64,000 bases of DNA from sequence record OR776998. One strand, 5' to 3'. Position 1 is the first letter of the stretch; each line of letters begins with the position of its first letter. The DNA comes from Escherichia phage YX22. The notes under the pieces were generated by a model that was given only the letters and a program-made list of their open reading frames with translations, made no database searches and was not told the origin of the DNA. This document shows positions 1,817 to 59,936 of this stretch, piece after piece. A program made the position numbers and the translations under genes.

Positions 1817-1841
1817 ACAAAATCTCCCAAGGATTATGGGG

Positions 1842-1848
1842 TATTTAG
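1842..1848 (-). promoter_or_regulatory. late-promoter-like core CTAAATAcccc
   Basis: The minus strand reads CTAAATACCCC about 25 nt upstream of the uvsW ATG. It belongs to an 11-member motif family. Confidence 0.45.
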
Positions 1849-2591
1849 TGATCCGGCCAGACTCCGTTTTGTTCTTTATCCATGCGATGATACAGACGAA
1901 CACGCTCAAACATCTTTGTCAGAATGTCATCACGGTTGAACTCAATGACGGTTGGTAGAGGGGAAGACTCGTTGGCGATCACGTTGATGAGGCGGGTGAT
2001 CTTGACGCCGAACATCTGCTGGAACATGACCGAATATAAGCATAGCTGGATACTGTAATCCTCGATCATGCCCCGCGTCTTCATGGTGTTCGATGTCTTG
2101 AAGTCGATGACAGCAGGTTTACCCTCATAAACCCCGATAAGGTCTACACGACCTGCAAGACCAAGCACCTCGCTATATAATGGGATCTCCTGAGCATAGA
2201 TCTTTGTCATCTTGTTCAGGTAAGGGAACAGCTGCTTGAACATGAACATGTATTCGCCAGCCGCTTCCAACACTTCTTTCATTGGGCGGTTCTTTAGATA
2301 CAGTTCACACGCAAGGTGCAGCTTCTCCCCTCGGTCAGCACAGCGCATGGTCTCAAGGTCAGCGGCCTCTGCGCCCAGCTTCTTCCTCCAAGACTCAAGC
2401 CATTCATGATCTCCAGTGCGTCCCAGCATAGTCGTGACGGATGTCAGTTTTACACCAGACGGTGAAACGTAATGACGACCATTCTCCGTCGTAACACACT
2501 CCAGTTCCTTGTAAGGAAGTTCGTATTGCTGGAATGTGTAATGACGGTTTTCGAAGTCGTTCAGCTTGCGTAGATCTTGGAGGGATGCCAT
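1845..2591 (-). CDS. PD-(D/E)XK (RecB/Cas4-like) nuclease
   Basis: GRVDLIGV...AVIDFKTS fits the D..(D/E)xK catalytic pattern. It sits next to the helicase. Confidence 0.6.
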   Translation of the reverse strand: MASLQDLRKLNDFENRHYTFQQYELPYKELECVTTENGRHYVSPSGVKLTSVTTMLGRTGDHEWLESWRKKLGAEAADLETMRCADRGEKLHLACELYLKNRPMKEVLEAAGEYMFMFKQLFPYLNKMTKIYAQEIPLYSEVLGLAGRVDLIGVYEGKPAVIDFKTSNTMKTRGMIEDYSIQLCLYSVMFQQMFGVKITRLINVIANESSPLPTVIEFNRDDILTKMFERVRLYHRMDKEQNGVWPDH

Positions 2592-2606
2592 TATGTGTGA
2601 TCCTCG

Positions 2607-3059
2607 TTATACACCATCAATATATTTTCTCCACTCAATAGCATTTTTCACTTCGTATCCCAGTTTGTTCAGGCGATCCAAACAAGTCTCTATGAACTTG
2701 ACTTTTGCTTTTTGTTCTTGTAACAGAACAGACAACTCCACATAGTCATCGTCTGCTTTGACCCATGTATCTAGGTCAGACTTCAGGGGGCGAACCTTCA
2801 GGGGGCGCTCTGCGTAGATGTTAGGGGGTAACTCCCCTGCATAGTAGCGGCGCAGATAGAGATCGATCTGGCGGAAGCGCCCGTTGAGAAATTCAAGATA
2901 ACGCCCCTCGCGCAGATAATGCCGCTGTACAGCCATCCAAGAGCGCCCGATTTTCAGTGAGATCTGGTCAAGGTTCATGTCTTCTGGGTCCACTGTGATC
3001 AGCGGCTCCAGTTCGTTCATGATGTCCTCGGTAGCCATTGTCTGTAGTTGTTCTTTCAT
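2607..3059 (-). CDS. hypothetical protein
   Basis: Clean 150-aa ORF in the minus-strand operon. No motif recognised. Confidence 0.6.
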   Translation of the reverse strand: MKEQLQTMATEDIMNELEPLITVDPEDMNLDQISLKIGRSWMAVQRHYLREGRYLEFLNGRFRQIDLYLRRYYAGELPPNIYAERPLKVRPLKSDLDTWVKADDDYVELSVLLQEQKAKVKFIETCLDRLNKLGYEVKNAIEWRKYIDGV

Positions 3060-5010: not shown

Positions 5011-5038
5011 AAGAAAATACCCCCATGGATGATGGGGG

Positions 5039-5045
5039 TATTTAG
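5039..5045 (-). promoter_or_regulatory. late-promoter-like core CTAAATAccccc
   Basis: The minus strand reads CTAAATACCCCCA. It forms an 11-bp inverted repeat with 5015-5025, next to the start codon. Confidence 0.55.
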
Positions 5046-6187: not shown

Positions 6188-6214
6188 CGGGGTTTATTGA
6201 AGAATTAAACCCCG
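6188..6214. terminator. 9-bp stem-loop between genes
   Basis: CGGGGTTTA/TAAACCCCG. The T-rich tail is on the plus side only. Two TTCAAT boxes here have no -10 element. Confidence 0.3.
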
Positions 6215-6235
6215 TTTATTGAATAAATTTAAAAT

Positions 6236-7490: not shown

Positions 7491-8963
7491 TTAGTTCAAG
7501 ACATATTTGATCAGTCCACAATTCCAAATCCTGACCAACCCGGCTTCGGTTGCTAATTGGCTTTCTGTTTTGCCTTCTACGTCATACCCCATGCGAGCAA
7601 ATGAACCTTTTCTGAAACCGAATTTGTGCTCACGCATAAATGTGCCAGGCTTGTGATATTTGTAGTCTGGCTTCTGTACTTCCTCTTCTACGAATCCGTG
7701 GGATAGGTAAATGTTGGACAACCTGCTTACAACACACCTATCCCCAAAGGAATAGATTTTGGTGCCGGTAAATTTTCTTCTGAAGTGTGAAAGAAGTTTA
7801 CTGAATGCCCCGTGGCAATCATTAGAGGCAAATCTGACTAATTCCAGGCCATCTTTCCTTTTAGTGAATAGCATCACGGCTTGTATGGCCCCACTCTTGT
7901 CAATTAACGACAAATGGTGGGTGGAAGAAACGGAACCTTGTATGTGGTGGTTGTCTAAAAACTCCCTCAAGCCGCTTATATTTCCCCAAACGACTTTGTG
8001 TTGGCGAGCATATGACGCAGGCGTTTTAATTCCAAGTTTAGCTTTCAGAAGAGATTTTACCACTTCCTGTTTCTCAACCCATTCATCTTCCCAGATGTGG
8101 ATCAACTGGATACCCTGAGTTTCACATATTTCAGTCTTTTCCAGGTGATAATGTTTCTCTTTAAAAACTTCTGAATGCCAGTACAGGCCATTAAATTCAA
8201 TCGCCAATTTGTGTTCAGGGCAATAGATATCCAGTTGTTTACCGGATAATATACTGTAATCAGAAACAGTGTTTACAACTCCCATTGATGTGAGAAACTC
8301 GGATATTTCCTTTTCATAAGAAGATTTCTTGTTCCTGATAGAACCATTGCTGAACAACGCACGTTTTAGTATGTTCGAATTTTTCATAGGGTTGTCAACA
8401 CCATAACGTTCTTGTAACGTTGCCAACGCCTTCTCCCTCACACCAGGTAATTGTAGTGTGGAGCAGCTTCCGTATTTGGATATATTCGAAGTCTCTATGG
8501 CTTTCCGACCAATCCCACCTTTACACATAGAAACCTGATAACATTCTTCAGAACAATATGTTCTGTAATCTTTATTATTGATGTAAAAGTTGGTTTCCTT
8601 GGAACACACCGGGCATATTTTCACGGTTCTATTGTACAGCCAAGCTGTGACTTTACAAGCCAAATCTTGTAGGGTGTTGTGGGTATTGGCGAACACTAAA
8701 AGGTCTACATTGATGTGCTTCATAAGCAGTTCAGATTTGCATTTTTGGATATCCAATTTGTTGTTCTTGGTAAACATATATTTGTAGAAAAATTGGCGAT
8801 ATGATTCCTCGTCAGACAATTCATTCACTGCTTCAAGGAAACCTTCCGGGAGGTTCTTTAGGGTGTTCGATGCGAAGGTCTTGCAAGCATCTGAACAAAA
8901 TTTCTTATCTTTCCTGGATGCTTTGAACTGTTCATGGCAGACACTACAGATTACCTGATACAT
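7491..8963 (-). CDS. free-standing homing-endonuclease-like protein (zinc ribbons + Vsr/PD-(D/E)XK-like core)
   Basis: Cys-pair ribbons CSVCHEQF..FCSDAC and CPVCSKE..YCSEEC, then LAIEFNGLYWHSE...IQLIHIWEDEW. The gene is A+T-rich and lies after the capsid gene. ATG at 8963 with a GGAGGAG SD. Confidence 0.6.
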   Translation of the reverse strand: MYQVICSVCHEQFKASRKDKKFCSDACKTFASNTLKNLPEGFLEAVNELSDEESYRQFFYKYMFTKNNKLDIQKCKSELLMKHINVDLLVFANTHNTLQDLACKVTAWLYNRTVKICPVCSKETNFYINNKDYRTYCSEECYQVSMCKGGIGRKAIETSNISKYGSCSTLQLPGVREKALATLQERYGVDNPMKNSNILKRALFSNGSIRNKKSSYEKEISEFLTSMGVVNTVSDYSILSGKQLDIYCPEHKLAIEFNGLYWHSEVFKEKHYHLEKTEICETQGIQLIHIWEDEWVEKQEVVKSLLKAKLGIKTPASYARQHKVVWGNISGLREFLDNHHIQGSVSSTHHLSLIDKSGAIQAVMLFTKRKDGLELVRFASNDCHGAFSKLLSHFRRKFTGTKIYSFGDRCVVSRLSNIYLSHGFVEEEVQKPDYKYHKPGTFMREHKFGFRKGSFARMGYDVEGKTESQLATEAGLVRIWNCGLIKYVLN

Positions 8964-8988
8964 AATTATTCTCCTCCATATGGTATCT

Positions 8989-9014
8989 AGTATAACCTGT
9001 TCGATAATATGAAC
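8989..9014 (-). promoter_or_regulatory. variant promoter-like element GTTCAT-N14-TATACT
   Basis: Sits between the capsid terminator and the endonuclease start. Confidence 0.3.
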
Positions 9015-9042
9015 AAATAAAAACCCCGCCGAAGCGGGGTTT
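9014..9042 (-). terminator. rho-independent terminator after the capsid gene
   Basis: AAACCCCGC-cgaa-GCGGGGTTT, followed on the minus strand by TTTTATTT. Confidence 0.7.
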
Positions 9043-9067
9043 GTCAGGGTTAAGGACAACTATTCGA

Positions 9068-14894: not shown

Positions 14895-15608
14895 TTACAC
14901 AATTCTAATTAGCTGCCAACCCGTCGTGTTCAAACGCTCTGCGGTCGCAGTTTTCCTATGATACACAGACGGTGGTGGAACTGGAATACCCTTGTCGATG
15001 TAATCATAGAGTGCTGAATATTTAAGTCCCAACCTCTCCACATATTCACGACAGTTCCCGTGGATTTCGTGTTCTTCACCGGAAGGAGATACCAATTTGA
15101 ATCGCTTTGCATGACCGTTGTTCTTGCCCTTTCTGATTCCAGTTTCAATGCATTTTCGACTAAATGATAATTTACCTTCTTCTTTCCATTCAACCCCGAT
15201 CCGACAGCTAATGATTTCTCCTGTTTTCCACCGTGGATCATCGCAATCAACTAAACCGAGATGTTCACCAGTAGAAGTCAAAACTGCTCCGTGTTTATTG
15301 GAAAATGTGGACCCGTCTCCACCCCAGGTCTTGTTGTACCCTTTCTGAGTTGACATGTGGGTTCCGTGTTGCTTTATAAGAATGATTTCCAATTCTTTTA
15401 GATCTTCCAGGGATTTGGTCTGGGCTAACACTTGAACAGAAAAGGACTCTTCTCCGTACTTTCTTATTGCTTGGTGAATAAAGTAATCAGATCCCTTCTG
15501 AGCACTATTGCAGTGCTCCCACCACCTTTGCATAGGGTCTCTCGTCGTTATCCCAATATAGGCTTTCTGATTTACTAGATTTGTAATTTTGTAAACACTT
15601 CCGATCAT
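14895..15608 (-). CDS. GIY-YIG homing endonuclease (Seg-like)
   Basis: VYKITNLVNQKAYIGIT..R..EH motif. A+T-rich insert between the sheath and tube genes, with its own promoter-like element. Confidence 0.8.
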   Translation of the reverse strand: MIGSVYKITNLVNQKAYIGITTRDPMQRWWEHCNSAQKGSDYFIHQAIRKYGEESFSVQVLAQTKSLEDLKELEIILIKQHGTHMSTQKGYNKTWGGDGSTFSNKHGAVLTSTGEHLGLVDCDDPRWKTGEIISCRIGVEWKEEGKLSFSRKCIETGIRKGKNNGHAKRFKLVSPSGEEHEIHGNCREYVERLGLKYSALYDYIDKGIPVPPPSVYHRKTATAERLNTTGWQLIRIV

Positions 15609-17638: not shown

Positions 17639-19849
17639 TCACCGTCTCAGCCATTCTTCCATAGACATACCAGAGCGTTCATCATAAACCTGAATTCCAC
17701 CGAACCCTGAGATGTTCTCCACAGAGTGAGGATCTGGCGTCGACATCATACCCCCAAATGGTAGCATCTGAGATTCTTCCATCGCAGACAACCGTCCTCT
17801 CATGTCCACAGAGATATTTGAATTGGTGAGATCACTAAACCATTCTTGTTTCACCGCCCATGCATACAACACGAGGGGCATTACACAGTCATCATGACAA
17901 CCATCATCGGCTTCATACCTTGTTCCAGTCCATACGAATGTACTGAGTTCATCTATCGTGTCCTGGTCATCTATCACCAGCATTTCACGTTCAATCAGGG
18001 CTTTCAGGTTGGCACAGCCGTTTGTGCGCACCTTCTTGTTGGTATTGATACCAGGTTCAGGGCGGCGACCACCGATTCTCTTGCCTGTACCCTTGGTATC
18101 TGTTGTGGTGAAGATGATCTCTGGATATTCAATTTCTTGGTATAGAATTGTGATTACCTGACCACCCACGTCGTTGTTGGTCTCGACTAGCATCGGGCAC
18201 GTTCCATACTTCTCACCCATATCGGCGATTGTGTACGCATACATCATTGGAGGTATCGTGTTATTTCGATACTTGGCTGCGATCTTGTGAGGATAGTCTG
18301 TGATGTCGATAATGGTCAGCACAGAATAATCCCCTTCGACACCCTTGCCTGTATCTGCGATACCCATATAGATGCGCTTAGGATCGTAGTCGTGATAAAT
18401 CTTGGTGAACTCGTTCGGCTCCTGATACAGCTTCGAGGTCATCTTGTCCAGACACTTGGCAGGTATCAGTGATCCCACAGAACCACGGAACTTAATGCCA
18501 AATTCTTGATCGAAACGTGCATCACCCAGCTTCGCCCTTTGTTTGGATTCCCAGTCTGGATCTTTGGTGTACGTTGGAACACGATACCATGGGACCTCGG
18601 TGAGTTTGAAGTCGTTGTATTGTGGGTGTTCTGGGTTCGCCTTGGTGACGATGTCGTAGAACAACCCGCGCTGACCTTTCGGCGTACTGGTCAGAATACA
18701 ACGTGAAGTCTCTGCAGATGCAATCGCCGGGAATGTAGACTCCCAGAATTCAAAGTCGTTTTCAATGAACGCCACTTCGTCCACATACAGGAGCGATACA
18801 GATCGACCACGGATGGAGTCGGAAGATGTCGCATAGGCGTAGATCTTTGATCCGTTTTCGAACTCTATCAGCGTGGAACCGAACTTCTCACAACCCTGTT
18901 GGAGGAAGAATGGCAAATCTTGATATGCTTTGCGAATACGATCTAGGATTTCAATCGCCTGCTTCTCTTTGTTCGCCAGTACTGCGATCTCTTTGTCGGA
19001 GTGGAACATCGCATACCAGAGCAGGAACGCTGCCACGACAGTCGTGTTGTGGCTGAGGAAGCCGTTGGTGTAGTAGCGCTGATCACTAGATTTCACCTGT
19101 AGGTCATACATGTGATGCGTCTCACCAGTCTGCCAAACCTCACGGATTTCTTCTGGACCTTCTGACGTCATGATGTATGACCCAGCATTCAGGTCTTTGG
19201 CAAATATCTCCTTCATTTCCGGAGTGAAGAATATATGTTCGTCGGCCACGTTAATTCGCCGCCCAGTAACAGTCACAATAACGAATTCCGCATATTTCTT
19301 CGTCTTATGCGCTGCGATAACCGGAACCCAGCCACTATCGGATTGCACAAAGTAACGTTTGCCGAAGCGGCTGTCCACGAACTTGTCATGGTTGCCAATG
19401 GTATTCAGCGGCACAGCGTGGTTGACGTCCTCGAAGCGGCTGTGAAGCTCCCCTATGGTCAGGAGCAACTGCTCTTGGCTGAGAGTATCGTAAACTGTGA
19501 CAAGCGTGTCACCTTTTACACATTTCCCAGACTGACGAGCCTGGACGACCGCATTGAATCGATAGTCCTGGAAGTCATGGAACAACTGCTTCTGGTAATC
19601 GTGCATGTCAAAGAGGATGAAGCCTTTATCGATGGTCGTGATCTTGTAGTAGTTGGCGGCGAAGTAATGGGCGTCCATCGCACACTCGACGAACTCCGAT
19701 TCTTGTTCGTCGGTTAGCATCAACTCCACACGAGGTGCACGCACAGACGGCTTGCGCATGAACGTTTGGTCCATACGCAGTCTGACGTCTTCTGTCTTAA
19801 ACCCCGTCTTGAGCGGGGCGTATTCTACATCACGCTTCTGATACGCCAT
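17639..19849 (-). CDS. terminase large subunit (T4 gp17-like), intein-containing
   Basis: Once residues 113-271 are removed the Walker A reads QARQSGK|TTVVAAFLL, as in T4 gp17 SRQLGKTTVVAIF. Walker B is LLYVDEVAF. Confidence 0.9.
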   Translation of the reverse strand: MAYQKRDVEYAPLKTGFKTEDVRLRMDQTFMRKPSVRAPRVELMLTDEQESEFVECAMDAHYFAANYYKITTIDKGFILFDMHDYQKQLFHDFQDYRFNAVVQARQSGKCVKGDTLVTVYDTLSQEQLLLTIGELHSRFEDVNHAVPLNTIGNHDKFVDSRFGKRYFVQSDSGWVPVIAAHKTKKYAEFVIVTVTGRRINVADEHIFFTPEMKEIFAKDLNAGSYIMTSEGPEEIREVWQTGETHHMYDLQVKSSDQRYYTNGFLSHNTTVVAAFLLWYAMFHSDKEIAVLANKEKQAIEILDRIRKAYQDLPFFLQQGCEKFGSTLIEFENGSKIYAYATSSDSIRGRSVSLLYVDEVAFIENDFEFWESTFPAIASAETSRCILTSTPKGQRGLFYDIVTKANPEHPQYNDFKLTEVPWYRVPTYTKDPDWESKQRAKLGDARFDQEFGIKFRGSVGSLIPAKCLDKMTSKLYQEPNEFTKIYHDYDPKRIYMGIADTGKGVEGDYSVLTIIDITDYPHKIAAKYRNNTIPPMMYAYTIADMGEKYGTCPMLVETNNDVGGQVITILYQEIEYPEIIFTTTDTKGTGKRIGGRRPEPGINTNKKVRTNGCANLKALIEREMLVIDDQDTIDELSTFVWTGTRYEADDGCHDDCVMPLVLYAWAVKQEWFSDLTNSNISVDMRGRLSAMEESQMLPFGGMMSTPDPHSVENISGFGGIQVYDERSGMSMEEWLRR
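19046..19522 (-). mobile_element. mini-intein (159 aa, no endonuclease domain) in the terminase P-loop
   Basis: Starts with CVKGDTLV and ends with YDLQV...NGFLSHN followed by Thr. Both junction codons were checked in the DNA. Confidence 0.8.
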
Positions 19850-20537
19850 TGTCTTCACCTTCTTCCTTCGGCTGCGGCTCGGCCTGAACGTCGATTACAT
19901 CTTCTTCGGGTTCAGGTCCTTTGGACGCAGCTTTCGCTGCAGCACGTTCTTCAGCACGTTTACGGGCGTCTTCGATGGTCTTCAGTAGATCACGGGAAGA
20001 CCTGGCCTGTTTACCGACGTTGACCGTGGTTGTGCCATCAGGGGACGTGGTGACCTCGACGGTTGTTTCATCTCCAGGAGGTGGCTCTCTGTCGCCCGTG
20101 ACCGCCTTGATAGTTTTCTGGTTCTCCATCAGGTCTTTGTTCAGGCCGCGCATGAGTTCACCCAACTCTTTGAAGACTGTAAAGGCACGGGGTGCTTCAG
20201 TCGTCGTCGCAAGTTTGGCTGCCTGTCCCATCATGAACATCGTGGCTTCCTGCATGGCATAAGTCGTGTCACGGATGCGTTTGTAGTCGGTGGTGGCATC
20301 AGTGTCTTCGAAGTCTGGAACCTTAGACTCCTTGGGCTTCAGCTCTTCTGGGTCCAATGAAGGAGGAAACACCACAGGCTCATACCCCGCAGGCTTTTCA
20401 CCCAACCATTCGCCTGTATCCGGATCGTAATCTTTTCCGGCCATAGGCGAGGTCTTCTCCATGACTTCTTGAGCGACCTCATCCCGCGCTTGGATAGCAC
20501 TGAGGGTGGATAATAGGCGTTCTGACATAGCACTCAT
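19830..20537 (-). CDS. terminase small subunit (gp16 position)
   Basis: Sits just upstream of, and overlapping, the large terminase gene. ATG at 20537 with a GGAGAT SD. Called on synteny only. Confidence 0.5.
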   Translation of the reverse strand: MSAMSERLLSTLSAIQARDEVAQEVMEKTSPMAGKDYDPDTGEWLGEKPAGYEPVVFPPSLDPEELKPKESKVPDFEDTDATTDYKRIRDTTYAMQEATMFMMGQAAKLATTTEAPRAFTVFKELGELMRGLNKDLMENQKTIKAVTGDREPPPGDETTVEVTTSPDGTTTVNVGKQARSSRDLLKTIEDARKRAEERAAAKAASKGPEPEEDVIDVQAEPQPKEEGEDNGVSEA

Positions 20538-21888: not shown

Positions 21889-21911
21889 ATCGATACCCTC
21901 AATTTTGAAGG

Positions 21912-21918
21912 TATTTAG
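21912..21918 (-). promoter_or_regulatory. late-promoter-like core CTAAATAcc
   Basis: 24 nt upstream of the 21888 ATG. Confidence 0.5.
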
Positions 21919-33330: not shown

Positions 33331-33404
33331 ATACCCCATAGAGGATTTGCCAATATGGGGTATTTAGTCTGAACTAATAAATTTATGAACAAAGGTATAA
33401 CAAG
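33331..33404. repeat. ~74-bp promoter/leader repeat, copy A
   Basis: Matches 36708-36780 with a 1-nt indel. It includes the late motif and the first 20 nt of the small plus-strand ORF. Confidence 0.8.
33361..33367 (-). promoter_or_regulatory. late-promoter-like core CTAAATAcccc
   Basis: Forms a 10-bp inverted repeat (33331-40 with 33354-63) that spans the promoter and the RBS. Confidence 0.55.
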
Positions 33405-36707: not shown

Positions 36708-36780
36708 ATACCCCATAAAGGATGACCAATATGGGGTATTTAGGCTGAACTAATAAATTTATGAACAAAGGTATAACAAG
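36708..36780. repeat. promoter/leader repeat, copy B
   Basis: Matches 33331-33404. Only the first 20 nt of the small plus-strand ORF survive here. Confidence 0.8.
36737..36743 (-). promoter_or_regulatory. late-promoter-like core CTAAATAcccc
   Basis: Forms an 11-bp inverted repeat (36707-17 with 36730-40). Confidence 0.55.
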
Positions 36781-39787: not shown

Positions 39788-39824
39788 TTCAAATACCCCT
39801 AAATGTGTTCGTTTCATCTAGGGG

Positions 39825-39831
39825 TATTTAG
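39825..39831 (-). promoter_or_regulatory. late-promoter-like core CTAAATAcccc
   Basis: Forms an 11-bp perfect inverted repeat (39791-801 with 39819-29). Confidence 0.55.
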
Positions 39832-45891: not shown

Positions 45892-46804
45892 CATCTTTGA
45901 GGATATTCTCACGAGTATCTTGAAAGATGTGAGCGAAGTCTTGCCATCAGCCCTGATCCCTGGCAGGTGAAGGGCACACAAATCGAAGTGCCTTGACAAT
46001 TTATCTTAAACCCAAAGGTTGATCTACAAATTGGGCGGCCAATCCGGTGGACGATAACAGCATATTGGGCCATACTGTTGAGTCAGGGCACTTCGATTTG
46101 TGAACTTGAGAGAGCATTGGGTGAAATAGACCATGCCTTGCAGATTGCGATGCCTACACATTCCGGACACTGGTGGGCACCAAGAAGAACTCAGTAGCAG
46201 ACGAGCCATCAGGGTTAGCTACCCGGCGCGGCGAGGACTGGGAGGCCGAACTAAGGGGAAACCCGAGACAGGCGTAGTATTCTCAAGTTCACAAAATGAA
46301 GAGCATTTAAAGAGTTCGATTCTCTTTCAGGCCATTCGTGGTGTGATGTGAGTCATGAATGTTCTTCATCTTTGGGTGATTTTATGTTGCCGGGCTATCA
46401 ACCCATGCTTGCTGGAGCAACCAGCGGCTCTGAATCAACCAGCCAGCCTCGTTTGGTCCGAGCGTTAGAGGACAAGTTGCTTCTACATAGAAGCTGCGAG
46501 TTTTAACATTTGGTTGCAACTTTGATGGCTCTGGATTTTATAAACCATGTCTATGGGTGACGCGGGATCTTTAGTACCAGAGCTATCAAAGTTGTGTCCA
46601 ACCCGATCTTGCAAGCCCGTATCCCTGTATGGTTAAGACTTGCAAGTGGAAAGCCCTGGAAAAATAAACGCCTGTGGCGAGGCTATGGTGCAAGCCAAAG
46701 ACCCACAGAAGCGCATGCCGTGAGGCGCACAAACAGGCATGCATGAACTGATCATGCACAAACGGGATAAAGGGTTGACAGTCCTTGGTTGGTCACAATA
46801 ATTT

Positions 46805-46881
46805 GGTCCTGTAGCTCAGTCGGTTAGAGCAGTGAACTCATAATTCATTGGTCGTTGGTTCAAATCCAACCAGGATCACCA
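46805..46881 (+). tRNA. tRNA with CAU anticodon (Met by anticodon; ileX-like, so possibly Ile2 reading AUA)
   Basis: Full cloverleaf: GGTCCTG/CAGGATC acceptor, GCTC..GAGC D arm, GTGAA-CTCATAA-TTCAT, GTTGG-TTCAAAT-CCAAC, encoded CCA. The variable loop TTGGTCG matches E. coli ileX. Confidence 0.9.
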
Positions 46882-47134
46882 TGTTAAGGGGTGTGAAACA
46901 TAACACTCCGACAAACACAGTAAGCGTTGCAGCCAGCTGTGTATAAAATGGGGATGACTCCGCATCGGAAACGATGCCCCAACTTCCAGAAATGGTCGGG
47001 CGCAAAGCCTGTAAAGTTCCAGGAGATCGAACCAGAAGGCACTGGTCGCCAGTTAACCAATCGGCGCTGAGAAGCGCGGGGAGTTGGGCTACGGCAGATC
47101 AAATGCTCAATCGGGTGTGAAGCCCGTCCAAATT

Positions 47135-47223
47135 GGAAGGTTGCCCGAGAGGTTTAAGGGACTCGACTGCTAATCGAGTGGGGCTTTTAGCCCCCGAAGG
47201 TTCGAATCCTTCACCTTCCGCCA
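47135..47223 (+). tRNA. tRNA-Ser (GCU)
   Basis: Class II cloverleaf: GGAAGGT/ACCTTCC, CTCGA-CTGCTAA-TCGAG, long variable arm GGGGC-tttta-GCCCC, GAAGG-TTCGAAT-CCTTC, G-CCA. Confidence 0.9.
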
Positions 47224-47442
47224 AATTACGGGCGTGACTTCCTGAAGAGTTAGAAGATGTGCATGTCGACTCTCTCTCGTAATCGGGGTGTTTAGGAAGT
47301 TAAGAAAATCGCGGCGAGGATAGTGAAATGCAAATAGCTTTCTCTACGTCGACGACTTCAGGTTCGACTCCTGACGCGCTCTCCCATAGGGTAGTACCAG
47401 TGCAAGCGTGTAGTCTTTCAACCCATCCCATCGATGTGGTGT

Positions 47443-47471
47443 AGCCGGATATCCTATCCGGCTTTCTTTTT
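47443..47471 (+). terminator. rho-independent terminator ending the RNA/tRNA unit
   Basis: AGCCGGATA-tcc-TATCCGGCT followed by TTCTTTTT. Confidence 0.75.
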
Positions 47472-47528
47472 ATCCCTGTCTTATTATCTTCTTATCGACC
47501 CAAGCATGTTCTCCTTTATCGTAGTTTG

Positions 47529-47555
47529 TTCAATGATACAAAGGGGGTTTAAAAT
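47529..47555 (+). promoter_or_regulatory. TTCAAT-N15-TAAAAT promoter-like element
   Basis: Upstream of the 47597 gene. It overlaps the GGGGGTT/AACCCCC hairpin. Confidence 0.4.
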
Positions 47556-47596
47556 TTAACCGTTAACCCCCCTATCATAGATTTGAGGATACACTA

Positions 47597-48259
47597 ATGC
47601 GTAATGTTTCTATCTGGGAATTGAACGAAGTGATTTCCCATGACACCCCTCCAATTGTCAGACTCTTCCAATACAAGGGTGTCAAGCGCACTCTGAATGA
47701 GTTCCTGTCGCCTGTTTACGTCTACCGTGATGGCGGGTTCTTCCGCCGCGATAAAAACATCCCGAACCTTGGTATGACGTTTGATTTGAGTATCAAAGGC
47801 CAGGTTGTATTGATGGGTTATGGTAGCCTAGAACAATCTGAGAAAGGCCAGGGCGCTCCACTTATGGTCTTCGGTTCGTTTGAACAAGCCGTGCACTGGC
47901 TGATCAGAAACGGATATGATTTCTATGGCGAAGAAAGCGCCAATTGGCGTCGTCGCAAGGTCAAGTCTGTTAATCTGGTGGATTTGAATCTGATGTACCA
48001 GGCCATGGCTCGCGAGTACGAAAAGAATCTCGTCAAGCCTGTCGCCCAGGAGAACAATAACAATGTTGTTAACGACGCAACTGAGTCTTCTCATCATGAC
48101 GTGAACATCGTTCCAGCCTGTGAAACGAAAGCGCCGACACCGCCCACTCCTCCGGCCAGTCGTGTTCTGAATGATCAGGGCGCTCCGGTAAAACAAAAGG
48201 TCAAGAAGCCGACTTTCATGGAAAACATGATGAAGTTCCTTCGTCTGTTCAAGAAATAA
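47597..48259 (+). CDS. hypothetical protein
   Basis: 220-aa ORF with a GAGGA SD. Confidence 0.65.
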   Translation: MRNVSIWELNEVISHDTPPIVRLFQYKGVKRTLNEFLSPVYVYRDGGFFRRDKNIPNLGMTFDLSIKGQVVLMGYGSLEQSEKGQGAPLMVFGSFEQAVHWLIRNGYDFYGEESANWRRRKVKSVNLVDLNLMYQAMAREYEKNLVKPVAQENNNNVVNDATESSHHDVNIVPACETKAPTPPTPPASRVLNDQGAPVKQKVKKPTFMENMMKFLRLFKK

Positions 48260-48283
48260 GCCGAGATTCTCCTTTTCTATATT

Positions 48284-48319
48284 CCTGTAGATACGCTATG
48301 ATAAGCCAATGTCTACAGG
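48284..48319 (+). promoter_or_regulatory. hairpin overlapping the SD of the PLP-enzyme gene
   Basis: CCTGTAGA/TCTACAGG (8 bp). The 3' arm runs into the AGGAG SD, 10 nt before the ATG. Confidence 0.35.
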
Positions 48320-48328
48320 AGAAATAGA

Positions 48329-49522
48329 ATGAACAAGACCATCTTCGATATCCTTTCCCTCGACCGCAACCTGGTCCATTGGGAAGATTATCTCTACAAG
48401 CACACCCCGTGCGAACTTGTCGTCAACCCAGAAACCAACCAGCAGGTCTGGTTCAAGCGTGAAGATTATTTTGCGCCGCTGTCTAACTATGCCAACGCCA
48501 AGCAGGGCATCAATGGCAGCAAACTCCGCCAGGCCATCTGGTTGATGGTTGAGCACCTCAAGGCCGGAGGCTCCCCTGACATCATCCATGGTACTGTCGT
48601 TGGTAGTCCGCAGTCCCCTATGGCGACGGCAGTCTCTCGGCACTTCGGCGGCAAGACAACCACTGTACTCGGAGCGACCAAACCCACCACCTGTATGAAC
48701 CACGACATGGTGGCAATGTCAGCCTGGTTTGGTAGTGAGTTCAACTTCGTCGGCTCGGGTTACAACAGCACGATCCAGCCGCGCTGTAAGAAGTTGATCG
48801 AACAACAGAATCCAAAGGCGTATTATCTGGAATATGGTATCACCCTCGACCATACAGCGCATTCTCCTGAGCGCATCGCTGGCTTCCATATGCTGGGTGG
48901 CGAGCAGGTTGCCAACATCCCTGACCATATTACCGATCTGATTATCCCAGCCGGATCGTGCAACTCTTGCACAAGTATCCTGACCGGGCTGGCAATGCAT
49001 CCGAAGCCTAATCTGAAGCGTGTGTATCTGATTGGCATCGGTCCGAACCGCCTGGACTTTATCGAGAGCCGTCTGCGCATCATCGGCAAACATGCCAATC
49101 TGCCGCACATTGTCGACTTCACCCGTCGCTATCACGACAACCCAGACTATGTACACGGCAAGAAGGAGCTTCAGCATGCCTCTAAGAGCGTTTCGCTGGC
49201 TGGCCTCCTGAGTGGTATCAGACATAAGGAAGAGCCAGAGGTCGTGCTTCCTCGCTTTGAGGTACACCATTGGGATCTTCATACCACTAATTGGGTTCGT
49301 TACAATGACCTGATGGAATATCAGTGGGGTGATATTGAGTTGCACCCTCGCTATGAAGGCAAGGTCATGACCTGGATCCAGCAGAACAAGCCAGAGGTGC
49401 TCAATGAGAACACTCTGTTCTGGATTGTGGGTAGCAAGCCATACATCGATCCGATGAAGGCAGCATGCCCTGAGCTGGCTATCCCTGAAACAGTTCCTGT
49501 AAACGAATTCACCCCTTCCTGA
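48329..49522 (+). CDS. PLP-dependent enzyme, ACC deaminase / D-cysteine desulfhydrase family (fold type II)
   Basis: FKREDY...NGSKLRQ (PLP lysine), IPAGSCNSCTSILTG (phosphate loop) and HPRYEGKVM, compared with the family motifs KRED..GGNKxRKL, GSxxG and DPVYEGK. Confidence 0.7.
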   Translation: MNKTIFDILSLDRNLVHWEDYLYKHTPCELVVNPETNQQVWFKREDYFAPLSNYANAKQGINGSKLRQAIWLMVEHLKAGGSPDIIHGTVVGSPQSPMATAVSRHFGGKTTTVLGATKPTTCMNHDMVAMSAWFGSEFNFVGSGYNSTIQPRCKKLIEQQNPKAYYLEYGITLDHTAHSPERIAGFHMLGGEQVANIPDHITDLIIPAGSCNSCTSILTGLAMHPKPNLKRVYLIGIGPNRLDFIESRLRIIGKHANLPHIVDFTRRYHDNPDYVHGKKELQHASKSVSLAGLLSGIRHKEEPEVVLPRFEVHHWDLHTTNWVRYNDLMEYQWGDIELHPRYEGKVMTWIQQNKPEVLNENTLFWIVGSKPYIDPMKAACPELAIPETVPVNEFTPS

Positions 49523-49617
49523 CCCTCCTGAACACCCCATACAATCCGTGTGGGGTATCTATGAAAACCTTCCTCCAATATTTCCGAGAGGCGTCCTGTA
49601 CAAACCAGACCTGGCAC

Positions 49618-49624
49618 CTAAATA
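49618..49624 (+). promoter_or_regulatory. late-promoter-like core CTAAATAccccc (plus strand)
   Basis: 34 nt upstream of the 49658 ATG. It is the only plus-strand member. Confidence 0.5.
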
Positions 49625-49657
49625 CCCCCATATGGCTAACCCACTGAGGAACCCAAC

Positions 49658-50116
49658 ATGCCAACCTCCAAATTGTTTGAATCAGAATACACCAATGACA
49701 TCCCTGTATGGACTGGTGTTCAAGACGGTATCACGATTGAGCTGTTTGATCGTGAAGAGACAGGCGCGGAAGAGATCTATGCAGGCGTTGAAGGCACTGA
49801 TGTTGTCCGCGCCGCCGTAGCACTTGCCACCTTCCTGGAAGATGCACCGATTGATGGCGTGCCGTTCGAGGCGCACGTAGATCCTAAGGATCCGACCTCT
49901 ATCATCATTACAGTGAATGGGGTGCCATACACTTCGTACAGCATCGAGACGGACGAAGAGGGCAGCGGAGCGCTGTATATTGCCACCGACCTGCAGCTGG
50001 AAGACGATGAGATGGATTATCTGATTCAGAACGGGGTGCTGCCACCGTTTACCGATGAAGAACTGGACACGGAACTGGCTGCTGTCGGGGACGACGAAGA
50101 CTTCTGGGAAGAATAA
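49658..50116 (+). CDS. acidic hypothetical protein
   Basis: 152-aa ORF with a GAGGA SD. Confidence 0.6.
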   Translation: MPTSKLFESEYTNDIPVWTGVQDGITIELFDREETGAEEIYAGVEGTDVVRAAVALATFLEDAPIDGVPFEAHVDPKDPTSIIITVNGVPYTSYSIETDEEGSGALYIATDLQLEDDEMDYLIQNGVLPPFTDEELDTELAAVGDDEDFWEE

Positions 50117-50118
50117 GA

Positions 50119-50139
50119 AAAGGGGCGTTAAGCCCCTTT
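50119..50139. terminator. bidirectional terminator
   Basis: AAAGGGGC-gttaa-GCCCCTTT between convergent genes. Confidence 0.65.
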
Positions 50140-50141
50140 CT

Positions 50142-50693
50142 TCATTTCACCTTGCGAGTTGGATATTGGTTAAAGAGTTTGCCCAGCTTAGACACGTTGA
50201 TGATCGTCTGGGTCTTCCAGCGCTGGATCCCTTCCGGGGTAGTCACGGTCAGGATTGAATGCCCCCAAATGTGAGAACCGTCCAGCACAGCCGCGCTGTG
50301 GCTACCAATCTTGTCTTCCAGTTTGCAAATGAAAGATTCATACTGATGGGCAGCGTTGCAACGGGCTTCTTTGATGAACAGACGCTGGCGCTCTGGATCA
50401 GACTTGACGATGTTAGGCGCACCCACTTGATAAGAGCGGTTCGGCGGGTTATTGTCGGCGGTCAGGCTCATATACAAAGACTGCTTTGCCTTCATGTGTT
50501 GGTAATCGTGGTGATCCATTCTGATGCCAACAGTTGATGGCCAAGGAGCGCACTTCTGAATATCCCAGCCGTTGGCGGCTAGATCGTCCATCACGTTCTT
50601 GATGATTTTGTTCGCGTACTGCTCGGCAGCTTCTTCGGCTTGCGACAACAGAGGCTCAACAGCGATACGGACAGCAGTTTTTGGTATTGTCAT
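50142..50693 (-). CDS. hypothetical protein
   Basis: ATG at 50693 (MTIPKT) with a GAAGGG SD. Confidence 0.6.
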   Translation of the reverse strand: MTIPKTAVRIAVEPLLSQAEEAAEQYANKIIKNVMDDLAANGWDIQKCAPWPSTVGIRMDHHDYQHMKAKQSLYMSLTADNNPPNRSYQVGAPNIVKSDPERQRLFIKEARCNAAHQYESFICKLEDKIGSHSAAVLDGSHIWGHSILTVTTPEGIQRWKTQTIINVSKLGKLFNQYPTRKVK

Positions 50694-56239: not shown

Positions 56240-56545
56240 GTGCAAGAACAATCCAAGTTTGGGGAAACCCCAGACAAGCGTTCCGGTGATAGCGACATGG
56301 ATAGCGTGATTAACCATGTGAACAACTTCATTCGTCAGCAGGAGACTCCAACTCCTATCGGTGCAGCCAAGGCTCTTCATGATGTACTGGTGAAGATCGG
56401 CCAGCGCTCTGAAGCGGATGAAATCTTCTATAACTTTGAAGACCAGTATAAAGTGAAGTTTGAAGAAAACGGTCGTCCGCAGGTTGCTGTGTTCTGGGCA
56501 CCTTGGCTGGGCGGCGTGAGCTGGCGTATTGAGGATGCTGTGTGA
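56240..56545 (+). CDS. hypothetical protein (GTG start)
   Basis: AGGAGG SD 6 nt before the GTG. Confidence 0.5.
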   Translation: MQEQSKFGETPDKRSGDSDMDSVINHVNNFIRQQETPTPIGAAKALHDVLVKIGQRSEADEIFYNFEDQYKVKFEENGRPQVAVFWAPWLGGVSWRIEDAV

Positions 56546-58143
56546 TGTCTCGCTACCATTACACATATAGGATAACCCATGTCCCAACTGGTAGATTCTA
56601 CGTCGGGATTCGGTCTTGTTCATGCACCCCCGAACAAGATCCCTATATGGGTTCTGGTGTGATCATCAAAAGGTTGTTGGAATCTCACCCCGCTTCTGAA
56701 TTCTTAAAGACGATAATAGAAAAGTTTGAAACCAGGTTGGAAGCATCCGACCTGGAGTCTATTATTGTTACGGAAGAGTTACTGTTGGACCCATTATGCC
56801 TGAACCTGAAATTGGGAGGAGACAATTCTATCATCCCAAACCAATTTAAGGCGGCGTTGGCTAGGACTGGCAAGAAATACAAATCTGGTATAAATCCTTG
56901 GGATGATCCAGAATACCGGGAACGTGTAATAAAATCAATAAAGGAGAACAGGGGTAATTCTCCCTACCCATTCATGGTTTCAAATGGTTATTGGTGGGTT
57001 TGGAAGGACGCCTGTAGGATCTATGATAGATGGGTGAACAACGGTGGTACTGTGAATCCTACCTGTATGCCAAAACGAGGATGTGGTTACAAATCTATCG
57101 GATTGTGGTATTCTAAACTACTGGACACAGAGTATCGTAATCTAAAGGGCGATGAGAGCGTCTTTCGTAATATGATCGCCATGTTTAAAGATGGTTGGAT
57201 TCCCAAAGAGGACAAACGTTTTATGACTATGATAAATTCTAGCGTGACGCCGGGTATTGTCGTTATTCGCGGGACAAGTGGAACGGGAAAGGGGACTCGT
57301 GTCGTTCAATTCCTTGAGTGGTTGAGAACCAAATATGAGCCAGAACTCATAGAATACGAATTCGACAAGAAGATGATCCAGGTTGGGTTTTGGTTCAAGG
57401 AAATCAATCTGGTGTTCATCGGCAAGTATACAGTGTCCAACAAATCAGGTCTAGCATCATGGACTTCCATGGATTTCATACACTCCACTCTCAAGTCTTC
57501 TGAGATGGCCAATTCGTTGTTGAAGTATCTCAAAATAAAGTTCAAAGATGCAACTATCATCTTGGAGGGGGAACCTATGATGCAGAGCCATCGTTGGCGT
57601 CCCGAGTTCGTACACCAGGACTTGGGGTTCAACAACATGGCATTCATCTCCTTTATTTACCAAGCGCGGGAAGATTACGACAAACGTATCATCGGTCGTT
57701 CTGGTAAGGCGGCGAAGGACACTGGCTGGGGAAGAAATGAACAATACACCAAGGATCACGTCAAGATCATGGGTGAGTACGCTTCCATCGGATACGAACT
57801 TGAACCAGACTCTCAGAATGAGTTGTTCATTGCAAAGGCAGCGAATGAAAATGGTGTAAAGGCAGTTGGTTGGAATATACTGAAATTCTTCGATGCCCCT
57901 CTCCACTTTATTGGTAGTTTTATTATAGATTTTGTTGGATTGAGAGGGTTGTCCAAAGAAGAGTTTCAAAAATATTGCGACACCACACCAATGTTGCGCA
58001 AGATTAAGGGTAGCAACCCTTTGGCGCACAGAGTCCCTGAGAAGCCGCAGAAGGCATCCAAAACTAAAACCAAGGCGAGCGCCCAGCCAGAAGCAACGAA
58101 GGCAGCGTCGCGCTCTCTCCTTGACCTGATGAAGAAGGGGTGA
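56545..58143 (+). CDS. GIY-YIG nuclease domain fused to a P-loop NTPase/kinase-like domain
   Basis: The N-terminus YTYRITHVPTGRFYVGIRS..DPYMGSG is GIY-YIG. From about residue 240, VVIRGTSGTGKGT is a Walker A and TIILEGEP is Walker-B-like. It is one uninterrupted frame and is A+T-rich. Confidence 0.65.
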   Translation: MSRYHYTYRITHVPTGRFYVGIRSCSCTPEQDPYMGSGVIIKRLLESHPASEFLKTIIEKFETRLEASDLESIIVTEELLLDPLCLNLKLGGDNSIIPNQFKAALARTGKKYKSGINPWDDPEYRERVIKSIKENRGNSPYPFMVSNGYWWVWKDACRIYDRWVNNGGTVNPTCMPKRGCGYKSIGLWYSKLLDTEYRNLKGDESVFRNMIAMFKDGWIPKEDKRFMTMINSSVTPGIVVIRGTSGTGKGTRVVQFLEWLRTKYEPELIEYEFDKKMIQVGFWFKEINLVFIGKYTVSNKSGLASWTSMDFIHSTLKSSEMANSLLKYLKIKFKDATIILEGEPMMQSHRWRPEFVHQDLGFNNMAFISFIYQAREDYDKRIIGRSGKAAKDTGWGRNEQYTKDHVKIMGEYASIGYELEPDSQNELFIAKAANENGVKAVGWNILKFFDAPLHFIGSFIIDFVGLRGLSKEEFQKYCDTTPMLRKIKGSNPLAHRVPEKPQKASKTKTKASAQPEATKAASRSLLDLMKKG

Positions 58144-58343: not shown

Positions 58344-58717
58344 AAATTCAAATCCCTCGCGATGCTGTGGCTGTTGCGATTGACTACACCGGAAACGCCA
58401 AGCACATTACTGCCGTGCGCCTGATTCCTGAAAAGAACTGCGTCATCCCTCAGTTCCAGCTGAATGCTAATCCGTCGTCCAAAGACTTCGGCAAGTGGTT
58501 GCAGGCTGCTCCGTTCCGTACCCAGACGAATGCTCAGATGTTCATCTCGGGTAAGACCCAAACTGCAGCCCGTCTGTGGTTCGTGACCGCTGACCGTCGC
58601 TTTGTCGATATGTGGGAACGTCCGATGGGGTTCGTGAAGCCGGAAGATATTCAGCTGGATCCTGAGCCTGAAGCTGTGGCTCCTGAAGAGGAAGCGAAAG
58701 ATGCATCATTTATCTAA
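58340..58717 (+). CDS. hypothetical protein
   Basis: The ATG at 58340 overlaps the previous stop (ATGA). The earlier part of the ORF-track frame is discounted. Confidence 0.5.
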   Translation: MKIQIPRDAVAVAIDYTGNAKHITAVRLIPEKNCVIPQFQLNANPSSKDFGKWLQAAPFRTQTNAQMFISGKTQTAARLWFVTADRRFVDMWERPMGFVKPEDIQLDPEPEAVAPEEEAKDASFI

Positions 58718-59936
58718 AATGCCGACGGGCTATACGCCTCCGGCTGAATGGAAGTACCCGATTGACCTGGCTGTTGATTATCGCAAGCCTGAGAATCGCA
58801 TGTACCTGCTCAAGGCTTGGGTGGAGGCGCTGTCCTACACAGAAGAGCACAACCAGCAGATGCGTCTGATGGACTATGCGATCGAAGTCACTGAAGGCAT
58901 CAGCCTCGAACAGAAAGTCGAGCGCAAGATCTGGATGGCATTCCTGTGGGGTTGTTGCTATAACGCTGTCGGACCGTGGACAATCTACAGTGAGTTCCCT
59001 GTACCACCCCAGTCCAAAGAAGAGATGCAGCGCTTCTCAGACTGGTACAACCTGAACTTTGAACGCATGCGATTCGATACCGACTGTCGCTACCGCAAGT
59101 CCAAGATGATTCCGTGTGTTCAGTCCTATATTGACTGGCTGGCTGGCCGTACTCAATATGACGCTTTCCGTGGGATGTTGGTGTGCATCGATAAGACAGA
59201 ACAATTCACCCAGCTGTGGGACACGGCGATGTCCTGGAAATACTTCGGTCGCCTGAGCGCCTGGAACTTCCTGGAAGCCCTGAACATGGTCTTCGGGAAC
59301 GAATACACCATTGACGTCCCTGGGTTCATGTTGCGTGACCGTGATGGAAGCGAGTCCAACCGTAATGGCGCGGCGTTCTTGTCCAACCGTGACGATTGGG
59401 TGACTAAACACGGGAAGAAAAAGATCAACGGTTGTCCTATCACGGATGAAGAGTGTGACATCCTTGAGGCCGACCTTGAGCAGGCGTTCCAGGATTGTGT
59501 GGCTGAGTTCGGGCACCTGACGTTCATCAACCGCCTGAACTTTGAAACCTCCGGTGCTTGTTGGCTGAAGAAATTCTTCCGACTGAAGAATACCCGTTAC
59601 ATCGGGTGGGACGCAGAGCGTACCTGGGATGAGATAGACTACATGGAACGCGTCTGGCCTGAATACTCCTGCGCAGCGCTCTGGGAAGCCCGTTCTCTCT
59701 GGCTGCCAGATACCCTGTTGTGTGAAAAGGCTCCTGCAGGGCACGTTCCAGGCGTCCAGAAGTGGAAGATGCCTGTGTTCTTTGAGACTGGTGTTCCTCT
59801 GCATATCTGGCACCTGCAAAGGGGTACGCGCTGGGAACCGTCCGAGGTATGTACGAACCTGAAGATGCCTGTGCGCAAGGTTGAGGACAAGCCGAAGTCC
59901 AGCAGCGTCAACCTCATGACACTCTTGAAACGCTGA
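58701..59936 (+). CDS. hypothetical 411-aa protein, Trp/Cys-rich
   Basis: GAGGA SD. No motif that I can name with confidence. Confidence 0.6.
   Translation: MHHLSKMPTGYTPPAEWKYPIDLAVDYRKPENRMYLLKAWVEALSYTEEHNQQMRLMDYAIEVTEGISLEQKVERKIWMAFLWGCCYNAVGPWTIYSEFPVPPQSKEEMQRFSDWYNLNFERMRFDTDCRYRKSKMIPCVQSYIDWLAGRTQYDAFRGMLVCIDKTEQFTQLWDTAMSWKYFGRLSAWNFLEALNMVFGNEYTIDVPGFMLRDRDGSESNRNGAAFLSNRDDWVTKHGKKKINGCPITDEECDILEADLEQAFQDCVAEFGHLTFINRLNFETSGACWLKKFFRLKNTRYIGWDAERTWDEIDYMERVWPEYSCAALWEARSLWLPDTLLCEKAPAGHVPGVQKWKMPVFFETGVPLHIWHLQRGTRWEPSEVCTNLKMPVRKVEDKPKSSSVNLMTLLKR

Follow-up and report, generated by a model that had tools for sequence, protein, structure and literature searches.

The closest described system to the locus considered here is the thymidine hypermodification pathway of Salmonella phage ViI, and in particular its enzyme gp226. 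Lee et al. (NAR 2021, PMC8989533) reported that purified gp226 shows the absorbance of pyridoxal 5′-phosphate (PLP) and turns O-serinyl-thymidine in DNA into 5-(2-aminoethoxy)methyl-deoxyuridine (5-NeOmdU), that one carbon of isotope-labelled serine is lost in the reaction, and that a lysate mixture lacking gp226 yields a product heavier by 44 u. The genes of the modification pathway are conserved across Ackermannviridae (review, PMC11721090), mass spectrometry of DNA has shown 5-NeOmdU in phages ViI, CBA120 and phiHS2 (PMC11721090; bioRxiv 10.64898/2026.05.19.726188), and 5-NeOmdU has been confirmed by this method in a Taipeivirus coliphage (bioRxiv 10.64898/2026.05.19.726188). Here we analysed a 64,000-nt stretch of Escherichia phage YX22 (sequence record OR776998; the whole stretch is called the window), and put at about 92% the probability that its gene at 48329-49522 encodes the Ackermannviridae PLP-dependent DNA decarboxylase, the ortholog of ViI gp226 that performs the last step of 5-NeOmdU hypermodification. 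The two genes compared are:

48329-49522, + strand: probable PLP-dependent decarboxylase gene (PLP gene), ViI gp226 ortholog; an ATG-to-TGA open reading frame (ORF) of 397 aa
140538-141812 of NC_015296: ViI orf00226 (gp226), YP_004327553

Over 394 aa the two proteins align with no gaps at 92% identity and 95% positives. Annotated gp226 is longer by 27 N-terminal residues, starting from the same ATG behind a nearly identical leader, and for this reason ViI K92 corresponds to K65 of the window protein, with which it aligns. The extra N-terminal segment is variable and is missing in further relatives as well; the short form, which resembles the N-terminus of Vibrio phage homologs, is also found in Escherichia phages AV101 and LHE287. 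A pseudogene produced by N-terminal shortening was ruled out, as the short form is intact and begins at the conserved ATG. Two minus-strand ORFs inside the gene (48719-49540 and 48296-48703) were treated as chance ORFs, with nothing to support them. A preliminary description of this DNA, made without database searches, had given the substrate as unknown; the 92%-identical gp226, which in purified form decarboxylates O-serinyl-thymidine in DNA (PMC8989533), points to one.

The translation contains FKRED (residues 42-46), INGSKLR (61-67, with K65 inside), a Gly/Ser-rich loop PAGSCNSCTS (207-216) and HPRYEGK (339-345). In an alignment of 40 sequences reaching down to about 41% identity, the invariant positions include K43, R44, D46, N62, G63, K65, R67 and S93, together with P94, Q95, H105, G209, N212, Y342, E343 and K345. 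A family profile built from the 40 homologs was searched against the PDB, and its only meaningful matches were the 1-aminocyclopropane-1-carboxylate (ACC) deaminases 1rqx (4.5e-6), 1f2d and 1j0e, and the Salmonella D-cysteine desulfhydrase (DcyD) 4d8t. These proteins were reached by the profile only: a single-sequence phmmer search of PDB sequences gave 0 matches. In the profile alignment, K65, S93, Y342 and E343 fall on K51, S78, Y294 and E295 of ACC deaminase (Pseudomonas numbering), and the loop 207-216 on its phosphate loop; the pairing of Y342-E343-G344-K345 with Y294-E295-G296-K297 is a weak local alignment.

Structure prediction agrees with the profile search. The AlphaFold (AF2) model of the window protein has a mean predicted local distance difference test (pLDDT) score of 88.6, and Foldseek returned 310 PDB matches at E ≤ 0.001, with all 50 of the 50 matches listed being fold-type II enzymes (probability 1.00). 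The best were DcyD (4d9e/4d8t), the Pyrococcus ACC-deaminase homologue 1j0a and ACC deaminase 1rqx; these nearest solved relatives are about 14% identical to it (TM scores 0.56 and 0.67). Lee et al. obtained the same 1j0a as the Phyre2 template for gp226 (PMC8989533). As modelled, the window protein is a fold-type II enzyme with the two-domain fold of the tryptophan synthase beta type. The sole low-confidence stretch of the model (pLDDT <50), residues 278-305, is disordered, and the family-alignment consensus indicates that this insert varies among homologs; we wondered whether it might contact DNA.

Searches of curated families gave a more restrained picture. The Pfam PALP model (PF00291) matches residues 26-249 with 30 bits against a gathering score of 35 (E 4.4e-7), several homologs carry a precomputed PF00291 match, and PHROG 3650, labelled as of unknown function, matches along the whole protein (E 5e-238; protein 1-397, profile 1-392). 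NCBIfam returned 0 families even at E ≤ 10, and hence no curated AcdS or DcyD model. By these sequence comparisons the protein has an ACC-deaminase-like scaffold, yet is not AcdS or DcyD in the curated sense.

The preliminary description can be judged on most of its claims at this point. The ORF and motifs lie where it had placed them; it named the Schiff-base lysine, the phosphate loop and the YEGK motif correctly, given their conservation among the 40 sequences and their alignment to ACC deaminase; and the active-site residues whose conservation it had proposed to check (K65, S93, Y342, E343) proved invariant. Its fold-type assignment holds, with ACC deaminases and D-cysteine desulfhydrases as the nearest solved relatives, and the searches found neither another fold nor loss of the catalytic lysine. 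The family membership in its title, that of a deaminase or desulfhydrase, found no curated model behind it.

The same data bear on whether the gene could instead be an auxiliary metabolic gene, a small-molecule ACC deaminase or D-cysteine desulfhydrase working on a free amino acid. In favour of such an enzyme, its closest structures and profiles are ACC deaminase and DcyD, with the active-site K, S, Y and E all kept, but the low identity, the missing curated match, the 92% identity to a proven DNA-substrate decarboxylase and the tie of the gene to DNA-modification genes across distant phages together make it extremely improbable.

In ACC deaminase, the pyridine nitrogen of PLP is contacted by E295, where most fold-type II PLP enzymes carry Ser or Thr instead. 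If the alignment is right, the retained E343 of the DNA decarboxylase would protonate this nitrogen, strengthen the electron sink and favour the carbanionic intermediate required for decarboxylation.

Two predicted partners of the PLP gene lie 7-10 kb downstream:

56542-58143, + strand: predicted 5-hydroxymethyl-deoxyuridine (5-hmdU) DNA kinase 2; PF18747 (E 3.8e-156, residues 237-532), 47% identical to ViI gp243
58701-59936, + strand: predicted amino acid:DNA transferase (aGPT-Pplase2), ViI gp247 ortholog; PF18724 (E 4.5e-60), 90% identical

The gene order follows that of ViI (tblastn with ViI proteins), starting at the baseplate wedge gene and continuing past the transferase. The pathway that we infer by orthology for the window phage, each step of which has been demonstrated for ViI, would begin with replication of phage DNA in which 5-hmdU replaces some thymidines. 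The 5-hmdU DNA kinase would then phosphorylate the hydroxymethyl group, and with the transferase the side-chain oxygen of free serine would displace the phosphate to leave O-serinyl-thymidine in the polymer. Finally, PLP held on K65 would form an external aldimine with the free alpha-amine of the appended serine, and removal of CO2 would give 5-NeOmdU, a base that would shield the phage DNA against many host nucleases.

The kinase has a feature of its own: it is fused in frame to a 234-residue N-terminal domain resembling homing endonucleases (phrog_15209, E 3.5e-129, and phrog_314), which also has a weak SegE GIY-YIG match. ViI gp243 is without this domain, and a gene of similar length (532 aa) occupies the same position in Yersinia phage CAU_YEP3.

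The divergence of the kinase enters into the question of the final base. The same enzyme family could act here on a different adduct, the transferase loading an amino acid other than serine and the modified base not being 5-NeOmdU; related clusters do make other bases (5-NedU in M6 and an acetylated form in PaMx11; PMC8989533), and no chemistry has been reported for the subfamily to which the window phage belongs. We consider this very unlikely, as the amino acid is set by the transferase, which here closely matches the serine-specific ViI gp247, and the syntenic block showed no partner of the radical SAM, FAD or acetyltransferase type. With the choice of amino acid made by a transferase 90% identical to the serine:DNA transferase gp247, the predicted product is again 5-NeOmdU.

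Several points nevertheless weigh against identifying the window gene as the gp226-type DNA decarboxylase of a 5-NeOmdU pathway. The kinase is only 47% identical to its ViI counterpart and carries the additional N-terminal domain, the 27-residue N-terminal segment of gp226 is missing from the window protein, the role proposed for E343 draws on a weak local alignment and general PLP chemistry, and 5-NeOmdU has been measured in Kuttervirus and Taipeivirus, with no Aglimvirinae measurement found in the literature.

At the DNA level, the region matches 266 phage genomes, all of them ViI-like (Ackermannviridae), the best being Escherichia phages LHE287, ZQ1 and AV101 at 96%, of which AV101 is classified in Aglimvirinae; judged by these matches, the window is from an Ackermannviridae coliphage (ViI-like, Aglimvirinae). 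The rest of the window fits a ViI-like origin, with T4-like capsid, portal, sheath and terminase genes as well as UvsW and UvsY, and it also holds a tailspike block, two tRNAs and a DNA polymerase. By tblastn, the PLP protein is present in 347 phage records, full length in 343, including 28 Escherichia, 160 Salmonella, 44 Klebsiella and 61 Vibrio phages. Among distant IMG/VR loci (37-48% identity), the transferase gene lies inside the 3-kb flanks of the PLP gene in 47 of 53, usually adjacent to it, and several of the 53 also have a kinase gene; in one metagenomic homolog, P0117, kinase and PLP enzyme are naturally fused.

Because the PLP gene is widespread in phage records and linked to transferase and kinase genes, it is neither unusual nor an orphan, and the suggestion that this enzyme class is unusual in coliphages gives way to that of a core Ackermannviridae gene. 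The enzyme is already known, and ordinary for the family. Public records name the gene variously as threonine dehydratase, threonine ammonia lyase or DNA repair protein (RecN), and as hypothetical in LHE287. In the GenBank record of AV101 (OQ973471; locus 1168-2394), the PLP gene is cut to 300 aa and a 97-aa antisense ORF is annotated over its 5′ end.

Directly upstream of the PLP gene is a leader with the following features:

48260-48328, + strand: ultra-conserved 69-nt leader, from the upstream stop codon to the ATG
48275-48329, + strand: predicted interrupted 18-bp hairpin (12-bp upper and 6-bp lower stem), with TATGAT in the loop

The preliminary description had reported an 8-bp hairpin at 48284-48319 that partly buries the Shine-Dalgarno sequence (SD). 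Its arms are exactly there (CCTGTAGA at 48284-48291 and TCTACAGG at 48312-48319) and the SD is indeed buried; the extent was understated, as a 12-bp stem (48282-48293/48310-48321) is predicted to stack on a 6-bp lower stem (48275-48280/48324-48329), so that pairing takes in all of AGGAG (48317-48321) as well as the first base of the start codon. The 84-nt stretch 48262-48345 folds at -25.5 kcal/mol (z = -5.1 versus shuffles) and the 76-nt stretch 48259-48334 at -23.1 kcal/mol, with an SD pairing probability of 0.95 in contexts of up to 300 nt. In stability the leader ranks second of the 65 gene leaders in the window and within the top 1.9% of all 53-nt windows.

Conservation of the leader is stronger than that of the gene it precedes. 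All 266 phage records that contain the leader match it at 95% identity or more, with a single copy per genome, and its mean identity over 22 loci, across genera, is 97.7%, versus 82-85% for the coding sequence. Kuttervirus, Agtrevirus, Limestonevirus and Taipeivirus have essentially one common leader sequence. Of the other leader types, just two, in Miltonvirus and Nezavisimistyvirus, keep the SD paired; they differ in sequence from that of the window and pair the SD with a conserved upstream CUCCUU box that is present in the window too. In Vibrio phages and other distant relatives, no consistent hairpin was found before the PLP gene.

Several other identities for the leader were tried and set aside. 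It is not repeated: GAGATTCTCCTT has exactly one copy in the window, with 4 near-matches versus 5.5 expected, and each of the 266 records has one copy. An intrinsic terminator was rejected, as the leader lacks a T-run and is not among the terminators reported by the scan; so was a canonical sigma-70 promoter in the hairpin, where the scan finds none and only a degenerate TTCTAT-N16-TATGAT is present. An Rfam search of 46700-50300 at E ≤ 1 gave two tRNAs and chance matches, none of them on the leader.

We infer from these observations that the leader hairpin restrains or times translation of the decarboxylase. A stable, conserved hairpin would lock the ribosome-binding site (RBS) of the PLP gene, and translation would thereby be limited or timed, possibly by being coupled to translation of the upstream gene, by processing of the RNA or by use of an alternative transcript start. 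More tentatively, the leader might be a dedicated cis-regulatory RNA switch that gates decarboxylase translation, perhaps until replication supplies DNA with O-serinyl-thymidine; it may even be one case of a wider Ackermannviridae habit of promoter-overlapping hairpins hiding the RBS, as at the CTAAATACCCC late motifs.

Against a regulatory role of the hairpin stands Dickeya phage LIMEstone1, in which the leader has passed to a homing-endonuclease-like ORF and the PLP gene runs from an unpaired SD; the hairpin is therefore not indispensable to the enzyme. At this locus (1323-3000) the ORF, of more than 390 aa, is inserted after PLP codon 3 and inherits the conserved hairpin, SD and ATG, and the PLP gene restarts about 1.6 kb downstream. 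The corresponding ORF in the related JA15 record is named homing endonuclease F-LimX.

That insertion, at exactly the junction of leader and gene, also fits a different account, in which the leader is a promoter or a recombination/homing junction, a mobile regulatory cassette like the T4-type promoter stem-loops, and pairing of the SD is incidental. The loop is conserved as much as the stems, and conservation falls sharply on either side of the leader, with an upstream gene only 47% identical to that of ViI and an indel-rich N-terminus in which the indels come directly after codon 2-3. In addition, each hexamer of TTCTAT-N16-TATGAT is one mismatch away from the family motif TTCAAT[N14]TATAAT (PMC7283392). 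The spacing, however, is 16 rather than 14, the sigma-70 scan is negative and there is one leader copy per genome; the divergent Miltonvirus and Nezavisimistyvirus leaders still pair the SD with the CUCCUU box, which argues for selection on SD sequestration itself. We regard a promoter or recombination-junction role as the chief alternative, though less likely than a hairpin that restrains or times translation.

The transcriptional surroundings of the PLP gene comprise:

47529-47578, + strand: promoter-like region for a two-gene unit, TTCAAT-N15-TAAAAT
47597-48259, + strand: upstream co-oriented gene, ViI orf00224 homolog (47% identity), PHROG 4050
49618-49628, + strand: late-promoter-like motif CTAAATACCCC, 40 nt before the next gene; motif published (PMC7283392)
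49658-50116, + strand, on the same strand as the motif: next gene, ViI orf00227 homolog

A terminator at 47443-47463 precedes the promoter-like region, whose TTCAAT-N15-TAAAAT element is close to the published viunalikevirus motif TTCAAT[N14]TATAAT (PMC7283392) and is overlapped by a sigma-70-like TTAAAA-N18-TATCAT. The region may thus serve as a promoter, and the PLP gene probably shares a transcript with the gene upstream of it. The motif CTAAATACCCC suggests that the gene at 49658-50116 has its own putative late promoter, and a bidirectional terminator follows at 50119-50139. In the interval after the PLP gene, a 9-bp hairpin without a T-run (ACCCCATAC / GTGTGGGGT, 49534-49556, + strand) can be read 12 nt past the stop codon; ViI has an extra gene in this interval, Vi01_183, which is missing from the window.

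Two motifs recur in the window well beyond expectation. The first, CTAAATACC, has 7 copies versus 0.26 expected, each on the same strand as the gene that follows it:

1840-1848, - strand: CTAAATACC
5037-5045, - strand: CTAAATACC
21910-21918, - strand: CTAAATACC
33359-33367, - strand: CTAAATACC
36735-36743, - strand: CTAAATACC
39823-39831, - strand: CTAAATACC
49618-49626, + strand: CTAAATACC

In at least 5 of these copies, a hairpin is formed by ATACCCC as the 5′ arm and, just ahead of the start codon, GGGGTAT as the 3′ arm. The late-type motif itself is published (PMC7283392). If transcription starts at it, only read-through RNA would hide the RBS, a design resembling that of T4 gene e. The second motif, TTCAATAAA, has 8 copies versus 0.61 expected, mostly beside G+C-rich hairpins with a TATAAT-like loop, at sites that correspond to the viunalikevirus motif TTCAAT[N14]TATAAT (PMC7283392) and may act as promoters, terminators or both:

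6193-6223, - strand: TTCAATAAA site
43953, 44592, 51131, 55051, 60160 and 62649, + strand: TTCAATAAA sites

Further signs of mobile elements are found elsewhere in the window, all on the minus strand:

7491-9059, - strand: 522-aa homing endonuclease (phrog_3339), adjoining the major capsid gene
14895-15608, - strand: GIY-YIG ORF between the tail tube and sheath genes
17639-19858, - strand: terminase large subunit, long at 739 aa, with a sub-threshold intein-splicing match (28.8 bits versus a cut-off of 35.8)

The value of the assignment is mainly corrective, in that the closest public genomes call the gene "hypothetical protein", "threonine dehydratase" or "DNA repair protein". Orthology to gp226 predicts that the DNA of the window coliphage is modified with 5-NeOmdU and resistant to many restriction enzymes, and the modification may disturb sequencing and cloning. 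Beyond this, interest remains in a leader under stronger constraint than its coding sequence and in how a fold-type II scaffold decarboxylates a DNA-bound substrate; the PDB searches (phmmer and family profile) turned up no structure of a gp226-type DNA decarboxylase.

Four known systems invite comparison with this locus. Phage T4 genes e, soc and 49 have leader hairpins that sequester the RBS. They resemble the window leader in a stable hairpin that pairs the SD and in a -10-like sequence between its arms, so that a transcript started internally would be translatable; as a difference, the window leader gives no evidence of an internal transcript start, and the late motif CTAAATACCCC is absent from it. 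ACC deaminase (1rqx, 1f2d) and DcyD (4d8t) share with the window protein the fold, KRED, the NGSK lysine, the SxQ serine, the phosphate loop and YEGK, whereas the phage protein, at about 14% identity, has some 60 extra residues, including the low-confidence insert 278-305. Their chemistry is ring opening or beta-elimination on a free amino acid, that of the gp226 family decarboxylation of a polymer-bound substrate.

The PLP-dependent decarboxylase gp52 of Pseudomonas phage M6, which Lee et al. describe as homologous to gp226 (PMC8989533), performs the same type of reaction on a DNA-bound amino acid; its substrate differs, being C-alpha-glycinyl-thymidine, and a radical SAM isomerase, of which none was seen in the window's syntenic block, is needed first. 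ViI (Vi01) gp226 (Lee et al. 2018, 2021) is the nearest: the window phage differs in its E. coli host, its place in Aglimvirinae, an N-terminus without the 27-residue segment and an activity predicted from sequence, and its gene shares with gp226 the catalytic lysine, the genomic position and neighbours, and a near-identical leader with its hairpin and SD.

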